Part shown: positions 1 through 53,640 of the stretch, one piece after another | Numbering within the stretch: the stretch's first letter is position 1 | Layout of the letters: every line of letters begins with the position of its first letter | Sequence record: ON286975 | Origin: Escherichia phage I29 | Reading direction: 5' to 3' (one strand) | DNA: 64,000 nucleotides | The notes under the pieces: model-generated | Told to the model about the DNA's origin: nothing | The model's database searches: none | Seen by the model: the letters and a program-made list of their open reading frames with translations, nothing else | Position numbers and translations under genes: made by a program

Positions 1-266
1 TTTTGTTTTCTTTATCCCAACATCTGCTGCAATTTTCCTTGTGCTTGGTGTGAAGCGTGAATTTCCTCCAAGCTTATACCAGTTGTGCAGGTAGCAGTAT
101 ACGATCTTGTCATACAAGTCAAGAACAACAACCTCCCCAGTTGTGTCATTCAAAACTTTTGACATAGATAGTATTTCAAGGGGGACTTTAAGATATAGCA
201 GCTTATCCCCATCTTTCATATCTCCTGATTCTCCTTGTGTGGCAATTTTCTTTAAAATAGCAGGGA

Positions 267-821
267 TTACTCCCTGCTGTCAATATCAAAACTCATTGCA
301 ATACGGTATGCCTCTTCTAATGGTAAGAGTCTCCCCCACACATCCCAACCGACATCAAGCTGCCTGCCAAACAACTGTTGTGTGGTTCCGTGAGCATGAC
401 CGAACAGTTGGACTGATCCGTGAGGCTTTCTGTTCCACTTTGCAAACTGGTAATGGCTCATACAGATCAAATTCTTGTTGTGGCGAAGCTCGTAATAATC
501 TACAACCTCATGACCGAACTCTTTCATAATTCTGACAGTCGTCCTTGTGTCATGGTTGCCACGAACAAGAATAATATGTCCGTTCAACATATTTAGAATA
601 TCTGGAAGTAAGTTGTTGATATTCTTATCATTAGTGCACGCAATATCTCCCAAGTGGAACACAGTGTCTGCAGGTGACACAACAGAGTTCCACTTGGCGA
701 TGATTCCCGCATTCATACTGTCAAGATTGTGATCATACTGAGATCTGTGTTTTTGACATGAATCAAACTCCATGACCCGCTGGTGGAGAAAGTGTGTGTC
801 GCTTGTTACAAAGTATTTCAT
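267..821 (-). CDS. calcineurin-like metallophosphoesterase (Ser/Thr phosphatase or polynucleotide 3'-phosphatase)
   Basis: Motifs SDTHF, HLGDI, RGNHD, FGHAHG; start taken at internal MKYFVTSDTH rather than the track start at 926. Confidence 0.6.
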   Translation of the reverse strand: MKYFVTSDTHFLHQRVMEFDSCQKHRSQYDHNLDSMNAGIIAKWNSVVSPADTVFHLGDIACTNDKNINNLLPDILNMLNGHIILVRGNHDTRTTVRIMKEFGHEVVDYYELRHNKNLICMSHYQFAKWNRKPHGSVQLFGHAHGTTQQLFGRQLDVGWDVWGRLLPLEEAYRIAMSFDIDSRE

Positions 822-2275: not shown

Positions 2276-2622
2276 AGAAGTTGATTGTGTGGCTAGATGA
2301 CTTGAGAGATCCGTCAAATTACGGAATCCAAGATGCTCTTTGGCTGAAGAACTCTTCTGAGTTCATGGATTTTATTAACGATAATAGAAAGCTCTACAGG
2401 CGCGTTTCTGAGTGGCATTTTGACAATGATCTAGGTGAAGTGCTTGAAGGGTACGACTGCTTCTCTGCGCTAGAGGAGAAACTTGTATTCGGAAAGCCAC
2501 CACTTATTGACAACGTGATTATTTTCGTGCATACTTCTAATCCATCGGCAGCTCGTAAATTTATGCTTGCTGCTGACTCATTCAAGAAGTTTGGAATAGA
2601 GATTAAACAAAACATCTACTGA
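2272..2622 (+). CDS. hypothetical protein
   Basis: ORF with GAGGA RBS, ATGA overlap with upstream stop. Confidence 0.4.
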   Translation: MKKLIVWLDDLRDPSNYGIQDALWLKNSSEFMDFINDNRKLYRRVSEWHFDNDLGEVLEGYDCFSALEEKLVFGKPPLIDNVIIFVHTSNPSAARKFMLAADSFKKFGIEIKQNIY

Positions 2623-2630
2623 GGACACTT

Positions 2631-3392
2631 ATGCGACGACTGATTATTATCTCCGGTGCTGGTTTGAGCGCTGAATCTGGTATTCCCACTTTCCGATCTG
2701 GTAGCACTGCAATGTGGGAGAATTTCAGCATCGATGAGGTGTGCAACATCCACACCTTTGCCAAGAACTACTATAAGGTGCATGACTTTTACAATGCACG
2801 TCGTGTAGCTCTGGGCAGTGTTGATCCTAACCTTGCACATCTTCGGATCGCTGAGTGGTATTCCCGCTGGTCTGGTCGTGTGATCAACCTTACTACCAAT
2901 GTAGATGATTTGCTGGAGCGTGCTGGTGTAAAACATGAAGATATTTTACATGTCCACGGGTATTTGCCTGAAATCACCTACGAAGATGCTGAAGGTAATG
3001 ATGTAATTAAAAATATCGGATACACGGAGGTAGATACAGGCAAGTATACCTGGGTTAAGCCCAATGTAGTGTTCTTCGGTGAGGTTGCTCCTAAGTATAC
3101 AGACATGTATGACCTGTTGACATCTCTCACAAGCAATGATATGGTGATCCTGGTAGGTTGTTCTAACACAGTTATTAATTTTAACTGGGAATTGTTTCCT
3201 GCTACTTGTAAAGGCACAAAACTGCTGATTGTAAACAAGTATGATTCGCAGAGTGCAGATGGAAGTGGCATTTCACGTAGCGACCTTTATCAATATGAGG
3301 ATCGCGGGATCCCTGTATGGTTTAACGGTGCTGTTGACGCTTTCTCTGATAAAGCATTTATTGAAACTGTAGAAAACTTTATGGAACTTTAA
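2631..3392 (+). CDS. Sir2-family NAD-dependent protein (sirtuin-like)
   Basis: GAGLSAESGIPTFRSG NAD-binding motif, HVHG catalytic His region, VVFFGE; no zinc-ribbon cysteines. Confidence 0.75.
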   Translation: MRRLIIISGAGLSAESGIPTFRSGSTAMWENFSIDEVCNIHTFAKNYYKVHDFYNARRVALGSVDPNLAHLRIAEWYSRWSGRVINLTTNVDDLLERAGVKHEDILHVHGYLPEITYEDAEGNDVIKNIGYTEVDTGKYTWVKPNVVFFGEVAPKYTDMYDLLTSLTSNDMVILVGCSNTVINFNWELFPATCKGTKLLIVNKYDSQSADGSGISRSDLYQYEDRGIPVWFNGAVDAFSDKAFIETVENFMEL

Positions 3393-3405
3393 AAGGAGAC
3401 CTTTA

Positions 3406-4119
3406 ATGCTGAATACTAAACTGATCGACAACCTGGAAAAACTGTCCCAGCCTGAAAACTACCTTTGGTCTGCCAACTGGGTGGAAAACTGGAACCGTGT
3501 GGCAGCTAAAGTGAAAAAATCATACACACCATTCGAATTACAGCTTAGCTTCATTGAGGAAGAGTTCAATGAGGTTTTGGAAGAGCTGGAGAAAGGTGAT
3601 GGTGGAGATCACCTGCTAAAAGAGGCCTGCGATCTTCACGTTGTCACAAGTTATGCAGCTTATCTTGTTAATGATAACCACGAAAAGTGGTCAAACCTGT
3701 TTGATAATCCGCGAGGTCTTAAGTTCAAGATCGGTGAGTTCTATGATACACTGATCGCTGCGAAAAACACATCCAAGCAAAGAGCGTCAGCTTACCGACT
3801 AGCGGAGTTATCAACAGCTTTGCTGTTCCAGCTTAGCGGGGATGTGTGTGGGATGATGCGGAAGGTTCTAAAATCTAATGACAGTAAGTTTGCACGGATC
3901 AACCATCTACGGCATTCACACGGTGCCAGTGCAGATATGCCTGCTGAACAACTCATCGAGTTGGAGATTAAAGATCTTGAGCGTCGTTTTGGTGGTCGCT
4001 ACGAAGGTTTCGTTGCTAAAGAGGAGTTCTACAACGGCAATAAAGTTATTATATTCCTTGACAGTAAAGGTAAGATTATGAAGCCTTCGAGCTTCAAGGA
4101 TGTAACAGAGTATATTTAA
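3406..4119 (+). CDS. MazG-like nucleotide pyrophosphohydrolase (tentative)
   Basis: Acidic helical EEEFNEVLEELEKGD motif. Confidence 0.35.
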   Translation: MLNTKLIDNLEKLSQPENYLWSANWVENWNRVAAKVKKSYTPFELQLSFIEEEFNEVLEELEKGDGGDHLLKEACDLHVVTSYAAYLVNDNHEKWSNLFDNPRGLKFKIGEFYDTLIAAKNTSKQRASAYRLAELSTALLFQLSGDVCGMMRKVLKSNDSKFARINHLRHSHGASADMPAEQLIELEIKDLERRFGGRYEGFVAKEEFYNGNKVIIFLDSKGKIMKPSSFKDVTEYI

Positions 4120-33446: not shown

Positions 33447-33764
33447 ATGCAAATTGAAATCACTGGCAACGTAGAAATCACTGAAGGTATGGTGTCTTTC
33501 ATTTCCCACAAAATGTCTAAGCTGGAGCGTTTGCACCCCTCTGCCAACTATGCACGTGTGAGTGTAAAAGTTGAAAATGATCACCAGGAAGTTATGGCGT
33601 TCATTTTTGACAATTCTGGAAAAGAAGTTATTGCCAAAGCTAAAGGCAGTGATGCTTACGAGGCAACTGACCGTATGGTAGATGTTGCAGCACGTCAGCT
33701 GGCTAAATGTGGTGGAAAGAAAGGTAAGGGGAAAGGCAAAGTAAAGATTGACTTTGGAGAATGA
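33447..33764 (+). CDS. ribosome hibernation promoting factor / RaiA (YfiA-HPF family) homolog
   Basis: MQIEITGNVEITEGM...KLERL...VSVKVE...GSDAYEATDRMVDVAARQLAK follows E. coli HPF/YfiA. Confidence 0.75.
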   Translation: MQIEITGNVEITEGMVSFISHKMSKLERLHPSANYARVSVKVENDHQEVMAFIFDNSGKEVIAKAKGSDAYEATDRMVDVAARQLAKCGGKKGKGKGKVKIDFGE

Positions 33765-39045: not shown

Positions 39046-39261
39046 ATGAAGATAGAAATATTTGGTGGAGCTGACAACACTCGTGGCCTGATTTACCTGG
39101 AATTCGATGAATCATACCTGCCAGAGGTGTTAAATATAGACTCTGTTGCTGAGGCTTTGGGAGTAAACCCTAAAGAACTCCACTCTTGTGCTGAGATCGA
39201 TGGTTGGGAAGAGACCATGAACATTGATTTCAGTGAAGTAGAGGATGAACCGCTGGACTGA
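39046..39261 (+). CDS. small acidic protein, last gene of the rightward arm
   Basis: MKIEIFGG start, GGAG RBS. Confidence 0.45.
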   Translation: MKIEIFGGADNTRGLIYLEFDESYLPEVLNIDSVAEALGVNPKELHSCAEIDGWEETMNIDFSEVEDEPLD

Positions 39262-39388
39262 CACACAATTAGCTGCCCGACTAAAGGGCTGGAAGCACCT
39301 ATAACACATCTTTCAACTAAATTTCCTACCACCACAATCACTTACCTCCCACACATGACTGTTTGCTTGTTTAGTGAGCAGTCATGCC

Positions 39389-39416
39389 TTGACATTCTTG
39401 CCTATCCTGATAAAAT
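39389..39416 (+). promoter_or_regulatory. sigma70-like promoter facing a non-coding region
   Basis: TTGACA-16-TAAAAT just after an 8-bp-stem hairpin (catgactg...cagtcatg); no convincing ORF downstream. Confidence 0.45.
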
Positions 39417-39894
39417 TAAGTTCTTCTCTTTTCTTTTACCGAGTAATTCGGGTTTTCTGTTCTCTTCGGTTTGAAGGGGTATGGAGATACACCTGAGTGA
39501 ACAGGGTGAACAACCGAACATTTGGCTATGGCATTAGCATGGCGAAGCGGACGGGTGACGAAAGAGGGGCCGGAGGACACCAGTCACTGCCATATGATAT
39601 ATGGGTGATAACCTGAAGAGTCTGAATAAGTGTTTAAGTACCAGTCAGAGGAAAAGGTGAATGGTAGCCGAAGGGGGAGGGGGGTTTCTTGTATCTTTAA
39701 TTTGTATATTATGTATACACTCGTAAACCAATCTCATCTGAATCTGTTTACCACACAAAGTAGATAGGGACAAATATCACCTATTAAACTTGAATTATTT
39801 ATAGAAAATACCACAACACCACTTAAGTCTTTGATTTTACACACAAATTCTACAGATATTCAACCTCCATATTTAACATACTTGTAACATATTC

Positions 39895-40440
39895 CATACT
39901 CTACCTGTCTGATCAATTTCCCCAACCACATCCTCCATATTTTCCCTGTCTGTACTACCCCTGCCCCGCCGTGAGTCCCGTCATATCTGGCTTTCCAGCA
40001 AATATCACACCCACAAATATCATTGCCTGAAGAGGGTTTCATCTCATAATATATGCCTTACCTGAAGAGCGCTTCATACACCACGTAATTTTTTTTTTAA
40101 TTGACCCCCTCCCCGCCGCTGGAGAGGTTGGCTTTTCCCACACAGACCTGAAGAGTCAGCCAGAAATATCTGAACAGGCCCAATTCTACCACGATTTTGA
40201 CCTGACCTACAGGAGTGCTGCCAGGCGGACGAAATGGGAATCATTCTCATTCTTATAACAATTCTCAAATATCGAGGCAGTGAGGCAAATTAATAGGTGA
40301 GGCCGTTCACACAATGGCACAACATTTGCAACCTATCTTGTGGGAGTGAATGAGAATACCTATCATTGTGAGAATAGTTATCATTACGGGCAATTTAACA
40401 TAATACCCATTATGCGCACCGCTGGTGATACATACAGGGA
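39895..40440. repeat. direct repeat copy 1 (546 bp)
   Basis: Identical to 40489-41034 as far as compared; track ORFs inside the two copies translate identically. Confidence 0.85.
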
Positions 40441-40543
40441 AAATATGGAGGATGTGGTTGGGGAAATTGATCAGACAGGTAGAGTATGCATACTCTACCT
40501 GTCTGATCAATTTCCCCAACCACATCCTCCATATTTTCCCTGT
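40434..40543. repeat. 110-bp perfect palindrome at the junction of the two repeat copies
   Basis: 40441-40488 is the exact reverse complement of 40489-40536, and the match extends 7 bp further on each side; centre gtatg|catac. Confidence 0.85.
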
Positions 40544-41034
40544 CTGTACTACCCCTGCCCCGCCGTGAGTCCCGTCATATCTGGCTTTCCAGCAAATATC
40601 ACACCCACAAATATCATTGCCTGAAGAGGGTTTCATCTCATAATATATGCCTTACCTGAAGAGCGCTTCATACACCACGTAATTTTTTTTTTAATTGACC
40701 CCCTCCCCGCCGCTGGAGAGGTTGGCTTTTCCCACACAGACCTGAAGAGTCAGCCAGAAATATCTGAACAGGCCCAATTCTACCACGATTTTGACCTGAC
40801 CTACAGGAGTGCTGCCAGGCGGACGAAATGGGAATCATTCTCATTCTTATAACAATTCTCAAATATCGAGGCAGTGAGGCAAATTAATAGGTGAGGCCGT
40901 TCACACAATGGCACAACATTTGCAACCTATCTTGTGGGAGTGAATGAGAATACCTATCATTGTGAGAATAGTTATCATTACGGGCAATTTAACATAATAC
41001 CCATTATGCGCACCGCTGGTGATACATACAGGGA
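40489..41034. repeat. direct repeat copy 2 (546 bp)
   Basis: Period 594 bp relative to copy 1. Confidence 0.85.
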
Positions 41035-41325
41035 TTGATAACATGAGTTACAGTTTACACACATAACAATTATATTTCTTACTATTTGTGTGGGATATAG
41101 TTAGCAACCAATAGATTAGATATTGACCTGTAGACTTCCAACCGTCTAGACGTCTAAACGCCCACACAACAAGGCTTATACATACACAACTGAATGTAAA
41201 CAGGGCCGCAAAAATGCTACCATACCAGATTGTAAATTTTCATGCAGCACTTGACAAAGAGGAGAAAAACTTGTCTGACATAATGGTGACACTGAACATA
41301 ATTGACATGCCTGACTGTTTACGCT

Positions 41326-41420
41326 ATCACTATTCACTCCCTTTACTGTTTACATTCTCAATAGTTTACATGTCTAATAGTTTACATAGCTAACTGTTCA
41401 CGCATAGATTGTTTACTCAA
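41326..41420. repeat. iteron-like array of GTTTACA motifs at ~17-bp spacing
   Basis: ctgtttacat, aatagtttacatg, aatagtttacata, actgttcacg, gattgtttactc; further copies in both orientations across 41050-41930. Confidence 0.6.
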
Positions 41421-41491
41421 AAATGATAAGCCATGCCATTCGTTTGCATGATAAAGATTAGCAAGTTAATAATCTTTCGCTGGCTATGCCA

Positions 41492-41709
41492 GGTGACTAG
41501 GTCACCCCTTCGGGCGTTCCTATGACATAATATAAAAGCAGGGCAACTATTAGCAGATCTATAGTTGCCTTGCTTGTTATGTCATGATTAACTAAATACA
41601 AGGCAACTATGATCTGATTAATAGATTGCAGACAAACTATCACGGGGGTGATGGTTACTGCTTTTATATTATGTCGCGACTCCGTCGCGCCATGCCATTC
41701 GTTTGCATA
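41492..41709. repeat. nested inverted and direct repeats
   Basis: 18-bp inverted arms gacataatataaaagcag / ctgcttttatattatgtc; palindromes ggtgactaggtcacc, ggcaactat...atagttgcc, cgcgactccgtcgcg; flanked by direct repeats of ccatgccattcgtttgcat at 41431 and 41691. Confidence 0.7.
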
Positions 41710-42320
41710 GTTGCCTTATTGTTACAGATAAAATAATTGTATTGTTAATTATTTCTTATCTTTCTCTTAGTCATCTAATGATTCCAGTCAGTATAGTAAT
41801 GTACAGTAAACATTAGACGACTAAAGATTTCTCTGTTTATGATAACTCACCGTGATAATTTCAGACTGTTTACGAAAAATGTTGACACCTAAGCTGATTT
41901 ATGCTATGCAGTTTACACGAATAATTATTTTATGCAGGTATTGACTATTCCGTTATTCTATGGTTGGAATAAATACTTAGTAGGCTATAGAATGGCGAGC
42001 GTACGTAAATTCTGAGATCTGGCGGCTATAGTTATACTCGATTTTTCACGTAGAACACGCTTTTGTGGTTATGTAAGTGTATGACTTATAAAGATTTTTA
42101 GTTGTTGACAAGATACTGAAGATGTGCATCAGGTTAAATTTTATGCAATAGCTGCATTACGTGCAATTTTGGAAGGAAAAACGTGTAAAAATGGCCCTGC
42201 TACCACACAATGAAAGATTATGCAATAGCTATTTTACATGTATATTTGTACAGTGTGTGGGATTGATGGCTAGTCAATTATTCCACTTGCCAGGTAGGGC
42301 CGTTTATGGTAGGAGAAGAG

Positions 42321-42352
42321 CAGACAAAAAGAAAGGGGCCTTTAAGCCCCTT
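42321..42352 (-). terminator. intrinsic terminator ending the leftward arm
   Basis: aaggggc-ctttaa-gcccctt hairpin with a U-tract on the minus strand. Confidence 0.6.
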
Positions 42353-42370
42353 GATAATTCAGTTAAGAAA

Positions 42371-42790
42371 TTATAATGATTCGTATATTTCAAAAATCCG
42401 ATTTGCCAGGTCGTTACGGTAGCGGAATTTTTCCTCACGTTTGATCATCAGATCTTTAAAGCCATATTCTTTAAGCACTTCATTAACTTTATGGCGGCAC
42501 ACCTTCATATTATCTTGAGCGTCACCAATAAACTTGTTGCTGTGGTGCATTGCTTTAATTTCTTCTTCCAGGACCAGGGCAACTACCCGGACCGGATCAA
42601 GCTGGTAGGCGGTAACATCGATGCGGCATTGTAGACGGCTTTTAACGTCTGCCACCGGATATACTGCAACCTCTTCCCCGTCAACATTGACAATAACTAG
42701 TTTACCATCGATTTCGAATCCTTTCGCCGCCGGACCGTGACAAAAAGCGTTATCAAAGCTATATGCCGGATTATTAGATTTAATGTTCAT
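42371..42790 (-). CDS. hypothetical protein
   Basis: ORF in arm orientation, AGAGG RBS. Confidence 0.45.
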   Translation of the reverse strand: MNIKSNNPAYSFDNAFCHGPAAKGFEIDGKLVIVNVDGEEVAVYPVADVKSRLQCRIDVTAYQLDPVRVVALVLEEEIKAMHHSNKFIGDAQDNMKVCRHKVNEVLKEYGFKDLMIKREEKFRYRNDLANRIFEIYESL

Positions 42791-46891: not shown

Positions 46892-46930
46892 TACTCCTTT
46901 TTGCACTGATTATTTTAACAGGGTTTAAAT

Positions 46931-46974
46931 TTACTTTATTGATGGCCCTGGAGTCAAGGCCATCTAAAAATAAA
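46931..46974 (-). promoter_or_regulatory. conserved 44-bp promoter/palindrome element, copy 1
   Basis: Minus strand TTGACT-18-TAAATT with embedded palindrome gatggcc...ggccatc. Confidence 0.5.
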
Positions 46975-50626: not shown

Positions 50627-50670
50627 GGTTTTAACTCCTATGCATTAGTTCAGTGTTAACAGTATAAAGT

Positions 50671-50714
50671 TTACTTTATTGATGGCCCTGGAGTCAAGGC
50701 CATCTAAAAATAAT
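50671..50714 (-). promoter_or_regulatory. conserved 44-bp promoter/palindrome element, copy 2
   Basis: TTGACT-18-TAAACT with the same palindrome. Confidence 0.5.
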
Positions 50715-51258: not shown

Positions 51259-51295
51259 GTGCTCATCTTCAAGCCTCCTTTTTAACTGGGATTAG

Positions 51296-51340
51296 TTTAC
51301 TTTACTGATGGCCCTGGAGTCAAGGCCATCTAAAAATAAA
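51296..51340 (-). promoter_or_regulatory. conserved 44-bp promoter/palindrome element, copy 3
   Basis: TTGACT-18-TAAACT, near-identical to copies 1 and 2. Confidence 0.5.
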
Positions 51341-53115: not shown

Positions 53116-53228
53116 GAGAACTCCTCGCATTTAATAAATTTAATTAGCGTGCTAATTACCCTCCGTAACAATTTCCTATAAAACAGTATCCCATAAAATA
53201 TTCCCATATAGAAATTTTAAAAATCCAT

Positions 53229-53395
53229 TTCTGAAAACGAAAAATCGATTTCGTTCCCAAAAATTTCAGGTCGAGCTCCGGAACGATTTCCAGAAAATCC
53301 GATTCAGAAAACGAAAAACAGATCGAGTACTGAGAAATTTATCGAGAAAAATTTTCAGAAAATTCAATCTTTGAAACGAAAAACAGATCGAGTAC
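53229..53395. repeat. three tandem ~60-bp iterons
   Basis: Consensus ttcaGAAAACGAAAAAcaGATCGAGTAC repeated three times. Confidence 0.6.
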
Positions 53396-53640
53396 CCGGA
53401 AAGCTGTACCGCAACCTCAAGATAGTGGTTAGACTATTACCATAAAAAGTCAAGGGTAAGTGGAGGAAGTTCTAGTAGAAGGATGTGAGCATGTGCGGGA
53501 AATCTGTAGTGGTGGTCTGGAATATGGTGCAAACGATAGGATGAGCGATTCAGCTTGTCGCGCCTACTCTGAAAAATCCATTTTAGTTTTCGATCCATTT
53601 TCTGATTTTCTAAGAATTTTAAAATATCTGGTCCGGTGAA

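Follow-up and report, generated by a model that had tools for sequence, protein, structure and literature searches.

A 546-bp duplication and perfect 110-bp palindrome in the sequence record of Escherichia phage I29 most likely arose during genome assembly

The sequence record of Escherichia phage I29 (Accession No. ON286975) contains two identical direct repeats joined through a perfect palindrome. Our analysis of a 64,000-bp stretch of this record (hereafter, the window) indicates that the duplication and the palindrome are most likely an assembly construct and not phage DNA, and that the centre of the palindrome is probably the point at which the two ends of a contig were pasted together. 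The lengths of all parts of the structure are those produced by a de Bruijn graph with k = 55 from a single inverted junction, and neither the duplication nor the palindrome is present in any of the approximately 150 related sequences that we compared.

On sequence grounds, the window is from a Vequintavirus (rV5-like Escherichia coli myovirus), and it is 92–99% identical to Vequintavirus genomes. About 19 unannotated GenBank records labelled as 'Campylobacter phage' (MG0656xx, e.g. MG065654 and MG065666) are also 92–99% identical to the window; these are probably mislabelled or derived from contaminating coliphages. According to the ORF list and the annotations of phages navn and Murica, the plus-strand ORFs end at 39261 and the minus-strand ORFs end at 42371. 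These stops agree with the original prediction, made from the sequence alone, that both gene arms terminate at a non-coding region of ∼3 kb. The intervening ∼3.1 kb contains no convincing genes, and the GC skew switches sign there. A gene-free region, termed the 'wastelands', is known in rV5 (PMC8785237). The intergenic region is 3.11 kb long in the window versus 2.36–2.60 kb in 20 relatives. Two ORFs that span the junctions of the structure (109 and 94 aa) and a 64-aa ORF within the repeat have no product on record in the gene index, and most relatives have nothing annotated at this position, in line with the earlier view that the ORFs inside the repeats are probably not genes.

Several other features were observed in the gene arms. 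A homologue of ribosome hibernation factors (PF02482, Ribosomal_S30AE; identified from precomputed Pfam hits and the annotations of relatives) is encoded at 33447–33764 in the left arm. A 62-nt intergenic element is present in three copies with 82–85% identity (46913–46974, 50653–50714, and 51279–51340), each with the hairpin GATGGCCCTGGAGTCAAGGCCATC and, after it, an A/T-rich tail; these elements are probably repeated terminator or promoter cassettes of the small-gene arm. In addition, three loose 57-nt repeat units (63–77% identity), which are rich in GAAAACGAAAAA motifs, are found at 53207–53402.

The coordinates of the structure are listed in Table 1. In a pairwise comparison, the two copies of the repeat (R) were identical at 546 of 546 positions with no mismatches, and the duplication cannot be extended by even one base at either side. 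The 48-nt spacer between them is the exact reverse complement of R[1..48], and the palindrome consists of two 55-nt arms that meet at 40488|40489. Beyond 55 nt, the arms show isolated matches only, with the first mismatches at offsets 55, 60, 61, and 65–67. The direct repeats, the inverted spacer, and the palindrome had all been described, with the same lengths and centre, in the original prediction, and each was confirmed to the base. Repeat scans of the 64-kb window recovered the same two copies of R and no other long repeats. As single-stranded DNA, the 110-nt palindrome folds with −64.7 kcal/mol, compared with −11.8 ± 2.3 kcal/mol for shuffled sequences (z = −23), and is thus not a product of chance.

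Table 1. Positions in the window of the repeat structure and of its surroundings
Feature	Position	Strand	Remarks
R copy 1, 546 bp	39895..40440	+	In the model: unitig e1, at the end of the raw contig
Spacer S, reverse complement of R[1..48]	40441..40488	+	In the model: the 48 bases (k − 7) newly added by chimeric edge e3 (103 nt)
R copy 2, 546 bp, in its normal R-Y context	40489..41034	+	In the model: unitig e1, as first segment of the raw contig
Perfect 110-bp palindrome, reverse complement of R[1..55] followed by R[1..55]	40434..40543	.	Centre is the proposed paste point of contig end and contig start
ACAGGGA, R[540..546], microhomology at j1	40434..40440	+	Second copy at 41028–41034
TCCCTGT, R[49..55], partner of the microhomology	39943..39949	+	Second copy at 40537–40543
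Equivalent of the 458/459-bp Vequintavirus DTR	40818..41275	+	From the record ends of HdK5, EdH4, YN3, and ECP2309; begins GGCGGACG, finishes AAAACTTGTC
Non-coding 'wasteland' between the convergent gene arms	39262..42370	.	From the ORF list and the navn and Murica annotations; 594 bp longer than in every relative

When R is divided into P (R[1..55]), M (R[56..539]), and a (R[540..546]), the order of the segments in the window is X-P-M-P'-P-M-a-Y, where X and Y are the flanking sequences and P' is the reverse complement of P. Segment a is the reverse complement of R[49..55], and the inverted match extends to 11 of 12 positions of R[49..60] when the flanking bases are included. According to the alignment, this pair of heptamers is a native short inverted repeat that is also kept in relatives; R contains 12 such native inverted pairs of 7 nt, this one included. 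The structure contains two novel junctions. At the first (j1), which leads from M-a into P' and reads ...CATACAGGGA|AAATATGGAGG..., R[546] is joined in inverted orientation to the reverse complement of R[48], 491 nt away, through the 7-nt microhomology; the chance that seven bases match at a random join is 4^-7 (∼6e-5). The base preceding the microhomology is mismatched (R[539] is T versus G). The second junction (j2, P'|P) is a turn-around with neither spacer nor microhomology, as expected for two pasted ends, and it gives rise to an NsiI site (ATGCAT). Both wild-type adjacencies, X|R and R|Y, are still present in the window.

The comparison with related genomes, which had been suggested as a check of the original prediction, found the duplication and the palindrome to be absent and the locus to be essentially unremarkable in relatives. 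When a 3.1-kb query was used, only ∼2.5 kb was matched in each relative, and the 48-nt spacer was covered in none of ∼120 GenBank records. All 35 fetched loci that span R, which were taken from GenBank, ENA metagenome scaffolds, and Logan assemblies, contain a single R in the order X-R-Y and neither of the novel junctions. Together, the ∼120 GenBank relatives and 30 further assembled contigs (∼150 in total) contain R as a single copy without the palindrome. Exact searches yielded no match to a 22-mer across the centre of the palindrome in IMG/VR or the JGI metagenomes and no match to a 24-mer across j1 in IMG/VR, and the 25 matches to an 18-mer junction word include none that is homologous to this locus. 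Both boundaries of R lie in sequences that are well conserved and free of indels in relatives, and relatives vary elsewhere in the gene-free region by indels of 20–50 bp. The window flanks differ from those of relatives by very few indels, indicating a high base-level quality. A literature search found no paper on a palindrome in Vequintavirus.

Two further differences between the window and its relatives were noted in this region. Some relatives, including navn and CM1, carry a 50-bp insertion flanked by the direct repeat GACCTACAGG at ∼40203, just upstream of the left end of the terminal repeat described below; the window, Murica, and HdK5 are without it. A run of 10 T residues at 40089–40098 (and at 40683–40692) corresponds to AAATTTTTT, with 6 T residues, in relatives, which may be a true difference or an error in homopolymer length.

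Vequintaviruses end in direct terminal repeats (DTRs), with lengths of 458 bp in HdK5 and EdH4 (PMC6563267) and 459 bp in Gotham (PMC7471380). The DTR defined by the record ends of HdK5, EdH4, YN3, and ECP2309 maps to the same locus as R (Table 1). The original prediction had named a concatemer or terminal-repeat junction as one of several possibilities, and as far as the locus is concerned, this was correct. However, R is not the DTR itself, because the DTR starts at R[330] and ends 241 bp past R: copy 2 of R begins 329 bp to the left of the DTR start. R thus holds the first 217 bp of the DTR and the sequence of the left cut site; it differs from the DTR of HdK5, EdH4, Gotham, YN3, and ECP2309 in its boundaries, its length, and the presence of the inverted spacer. 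The first 217 bp of the DTR occur a second time, at 40224–40440, only because R is duplicated. The two DTR boundary sequences (...GCCA|GGCGGACG and AAAACTTGTC|TGAC) are both intact in the window and do not coincide with the boundaries of R.

The DTR and its right-hand neighbourhood contain additional repeats. Adjacent 18-bp direct repeats, TGAGAATACCTATCATTG and TGAGAATAGTTATCATTA, are located at 40351–40386 (duplicated at 40945–40980) within the DTR equivalent; they are kept in relatives, are annotated as a repeat_region in navn and Alma, and could be a candidate protein-binding (packaging?) site. The segment directly to the right of the DTR end (41276–41420) contains several TGTTTAC/AGTTTACA motifs and is hypervariable, with many indels among relatives, whereas the DTR is conserved. 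Farther to the right, at 41430–41724, an exact 20-bp direct repeat (GCCATGCCATTCGTTTGCAT, at 41430 and 41689) flanks approximately five AGGGCAACTAT / ATAGTTGCCTT motifs in both orientations, and an 18-bp perfect inverted repeat (41524–41541 / 41658–41675) is also present; this segment looks like a putative iteron or operator array just to the right of the DTR.

The lengths of the structure point to its origin. The 48-nt spacer and the 7-nt microhomology add up to 55, and 55 is a default k value of SPAdes. We simulated a de Bruijn graph from the window without the 594 extra bp, taken as a circle, together with one molecule containing j1. At k = 55, the only branch vertices were R[1..55] and R[492..546], and the graph contained a unitig of 546 bp (e1) with exactly the sequence of R, a chimeric edge of 103 nt (55 + 48), and a 62,970-bp edge representing the rest of the genome. 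Owing to the mismatch at R[539], a walk past j1 does not reach genuine sequence again until the k-mer that is the exact reverse complement of R[1..55]. The re-entry at this k-mer makes R[1..55] and R[492..546] the sole branch vertices, so that the unitig between them is R. The path e1-e2-e1-e3 begins with P and finishes with P', and when rotated as a circle, it reproduces all 64,000 bases of the window. The other k values gave different lengths of repeat and spacer (524 and 26 at k = 33; 568 and 70 at k = 77), and neither reproduced the window. Thus, the lengths of the repeat, the spacer, and the palindrome arms (546, 48, and 55) are set by k and the position of the microhomology. Because the simulated path matches the window, support in the reads is needed for j1 only, and because both wild-type adjacencies are retained, a minority of chimeric reads would suffice. 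The closest known counterparts are artefacts of de Bruijn contigs (terminal overlaps of length k, or inverted ends) that have entered 'circularised' and rotated phage genomes; in the structure described here, the lengths are likewise fixed by k, and the arm equals k. Such artefacts usually take the form of direct k-mer overlaps or of a DTR in tandem, the latter exemplified by the record of Shigella phage CM1 (see below), whereas here an inverted chimeric edge makes the contig ends reverse-complementary and yields a palindrome on pasting.

The explanation that we favour starts from the observed geometry, the absence of the structure from relatives, and its exact reproduction in the simulation; to these, we add what we infer about the assembler type, the contig path, the rotation, and the nature of j1 as a minority chimera. 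The real genome would contain one R (X-R-Y), as do all relatives, and a single type of fold-back chimera, that with junction j1, would have been present among the reads. Here, a strand with ...ACAGGGA (R[546]) at its end would have been primed on the native TCCCTGT (R[49..55]) and extended into the reverse complement of R[48..1], either as a strand-displacement or end-repair chimera, of which such junctions are the usual product, or through a rare in vivo strand switch. At k = 55, j1 alone would then create the two branch vertices and the unitig R, and the chimeric edge would add k − 7 = 48 bases. The contig path would run from R through the rest of the genome to R again and into the chimeric edge, leaving contig ends that are mutually reverse-complementary over R[1..55]. 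If this linear contig was taken as circular and re-opened at the start conventional for rV5, its end would have been pasted to its beginning, giving a spacer-less 110-bp palindrome and two identical copies of R. Position 1 of the window aligns to ∼64.2–65.4 kb of the records that are co-linear with rV5, which fits a record re-opened at the rV5-convention start and a raw contig with its ends at the DTR region, the rotation itself being part of the model. The 217 bp of double-coverage DTR within R may perhaps have prompted the assembler to traverse R twice. The internalisation of terminal redundancies in contigs is a recognised problem in phage assembly (PMC8785237).

Junction j1 also resembles known chimeras. 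More than 85% of the chimeras formed in multiple displacement amplification (MDA) are inverted; they are primed on 2–21 nt of complementarity, are mostly intramolecular, and constitute the main artefact of MDA (Lasken & Stockwell 2007, PMC1855051). Chimeric reads with inverted repeats also arise in ordinary library preparation (PMC10908179). Like these fold-back chimeras, j1 is inverted, intramolecular, and microhomology-primed; it connects points only 491 nt apart, and its 7 nt of perfect complementarity (11/12 with the flanks) lie within the above range. Such chimeras usually remain rare reads that are discarded, whereas one has apparently reached the final sequence here. Two points weigh against an artefact: path extension would have to have retained a low-coverage chimeric edge, and the base quality of the flanks is high, so that the assembly was not generally poor. 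Moreover, the sequence would be identical if a real rearrangement happened to have its turn-around at a distance of 48 nt from the microhomology.

Such a rearrangement, namely a true and very recent fold-back or MMBIR-type duplication private to this isolate, is unlikely in our view. A nascent strand at R[546] would switch at the 7-nt inverted repeat, copy to a broken end at R[1], turn around there, and copy R again. The maker would plausibly be the T7-like replisome of the phage, which comprises Pol A and a gp4-like helicase-primase (PMC3606486). The combination of a microhomology at one junction with a blunt turn-around at the other is a pattern of strand switching, the absence of divergence between the copies of R fits a recent event, and the insertion is situated where genes are absent and where, to judge from the 20–50-bp indels of relatives, changes in length are tolerated. 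However, the distance between the turn-around and the microhomology would have to be exactly k − 7 nt for a canonical k by coincidence, the chance of which is roughly 1 in 25. Nothing similar was found in the ∼150 relatives. Long palindromes are unstable in E. coli, where SbcCD acts, and 546-bp direct repeats with a 110-bp palindrome should generally vanish fast through recombination and hairpin cleavage. It is distinctly unlikely that j1 or even the whole structure is genuine phage DNA, a snap-back product formed beside the terminal repeat by a T7-like replisome or the packaging machinery, in which case a viable lytic phage would tolerate a 110-bp perfect palindrome. This reading recalls the hairpin intermediate that was reportedly proposed by Chung, Nardone, and Hinkle in 1990 for the duplication of the T7 terminal repeat. 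We also considered and rejected several other routes. A raw long-read assembly error is unlikely because of the very few indels in the flanks relative to relatives. Inspection by eye and primer Tm revealed no sequence feature in favour of true molecule ends at R[1] and R[546], whether from restriction sites, from a PCR amplicon of 546 bp, or from a shift in terminase cutting; such ends are also unnecessary because the k = 55 model accounts for both boundaries. Two independent template switches, or rolling-circle copying of a 594-nt unit (P-M-P'), are conceivable, but each requires more coincidences than one junction and k = 55.

That R is the phage DTR or a concatemer junction written out twice is highly improbable. 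The locus is indeed the terminal region, and Shigella phage CM1 (MK962749.1) provides a precedent: this record contains an exact 523-bp tandem duplication (2535–3057 and 3058–3580 of the fetched locus L007; record positions 105534–106579) that begins at the left DTR boundary GGCGGACG, and the terminal repeat thus appears, from the sequence, to be written twice inside the record. However, an uncollapsed DTR of this type is a plain tandem repeat without an inverted 48-nt spacer, and the records of four relatives, as well as the published DTR length of 458–459 bp (546 bp for R), define a DTR that overlaps R but does not coincide with it. A functional palindrome, such as a hairpin-telomere resolution site, a cruciform origin, or a protein-binding site, is extremely improbable. 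Its size and perfection, together with its non-coding or regulatory position, are what speak for it, and the protelomerase targets of N15-type linear plasmid prophages (telRL) share a long perfect palindrome in a phage genome. In contrast to telRL, the palindrome described here is built from otherwise unique sequence and belongs to a group with DTR ends, not hairpins; it is also not conserved, as would be required of a telomere-resolution site or an origin or cruciform, since relatives are X-R-Y without the inverted segment. No protelomerase or recombinase was found among 10 of the 14 ORFs of ≥250 aa that were scanned in the window, which covers 64 kb of a genome of ∼137 kb; these ten large ORFs encode ligases, RNR, NrdD, ThyX, and ClpP-like proteins. 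Rfam families gave only sub-threshold, miRNA-like hairpin matches to the palindrome, which are spurious. The proposal that the palindrome is a telomere-resolution site, an origin, or a genuine junction was therefore not borne out, given its absence from all of the ∼150 relatives, the offset of the boundaries of R from the mapped DTR, and the k = 55 geometry.

The main value of the assembly explanation lies in quality control, as scans for long palindromes will go on flagging this record. The k signature identified here is usable as a quick test elsewhere: the spacer and the microhomology add up to a canonical k, and the repeat has the sequence of the unitig bounded by two branch k-mers. For phage I29, the record probably includes 594 bases that do not belong to the phage, and spurious ORFs with them, where the true genome termini are located. 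If the structure were nonetheless real, it would be a modest curiosity concerning the tolerance of palindromes and strand switching near a phage terminal repeat.
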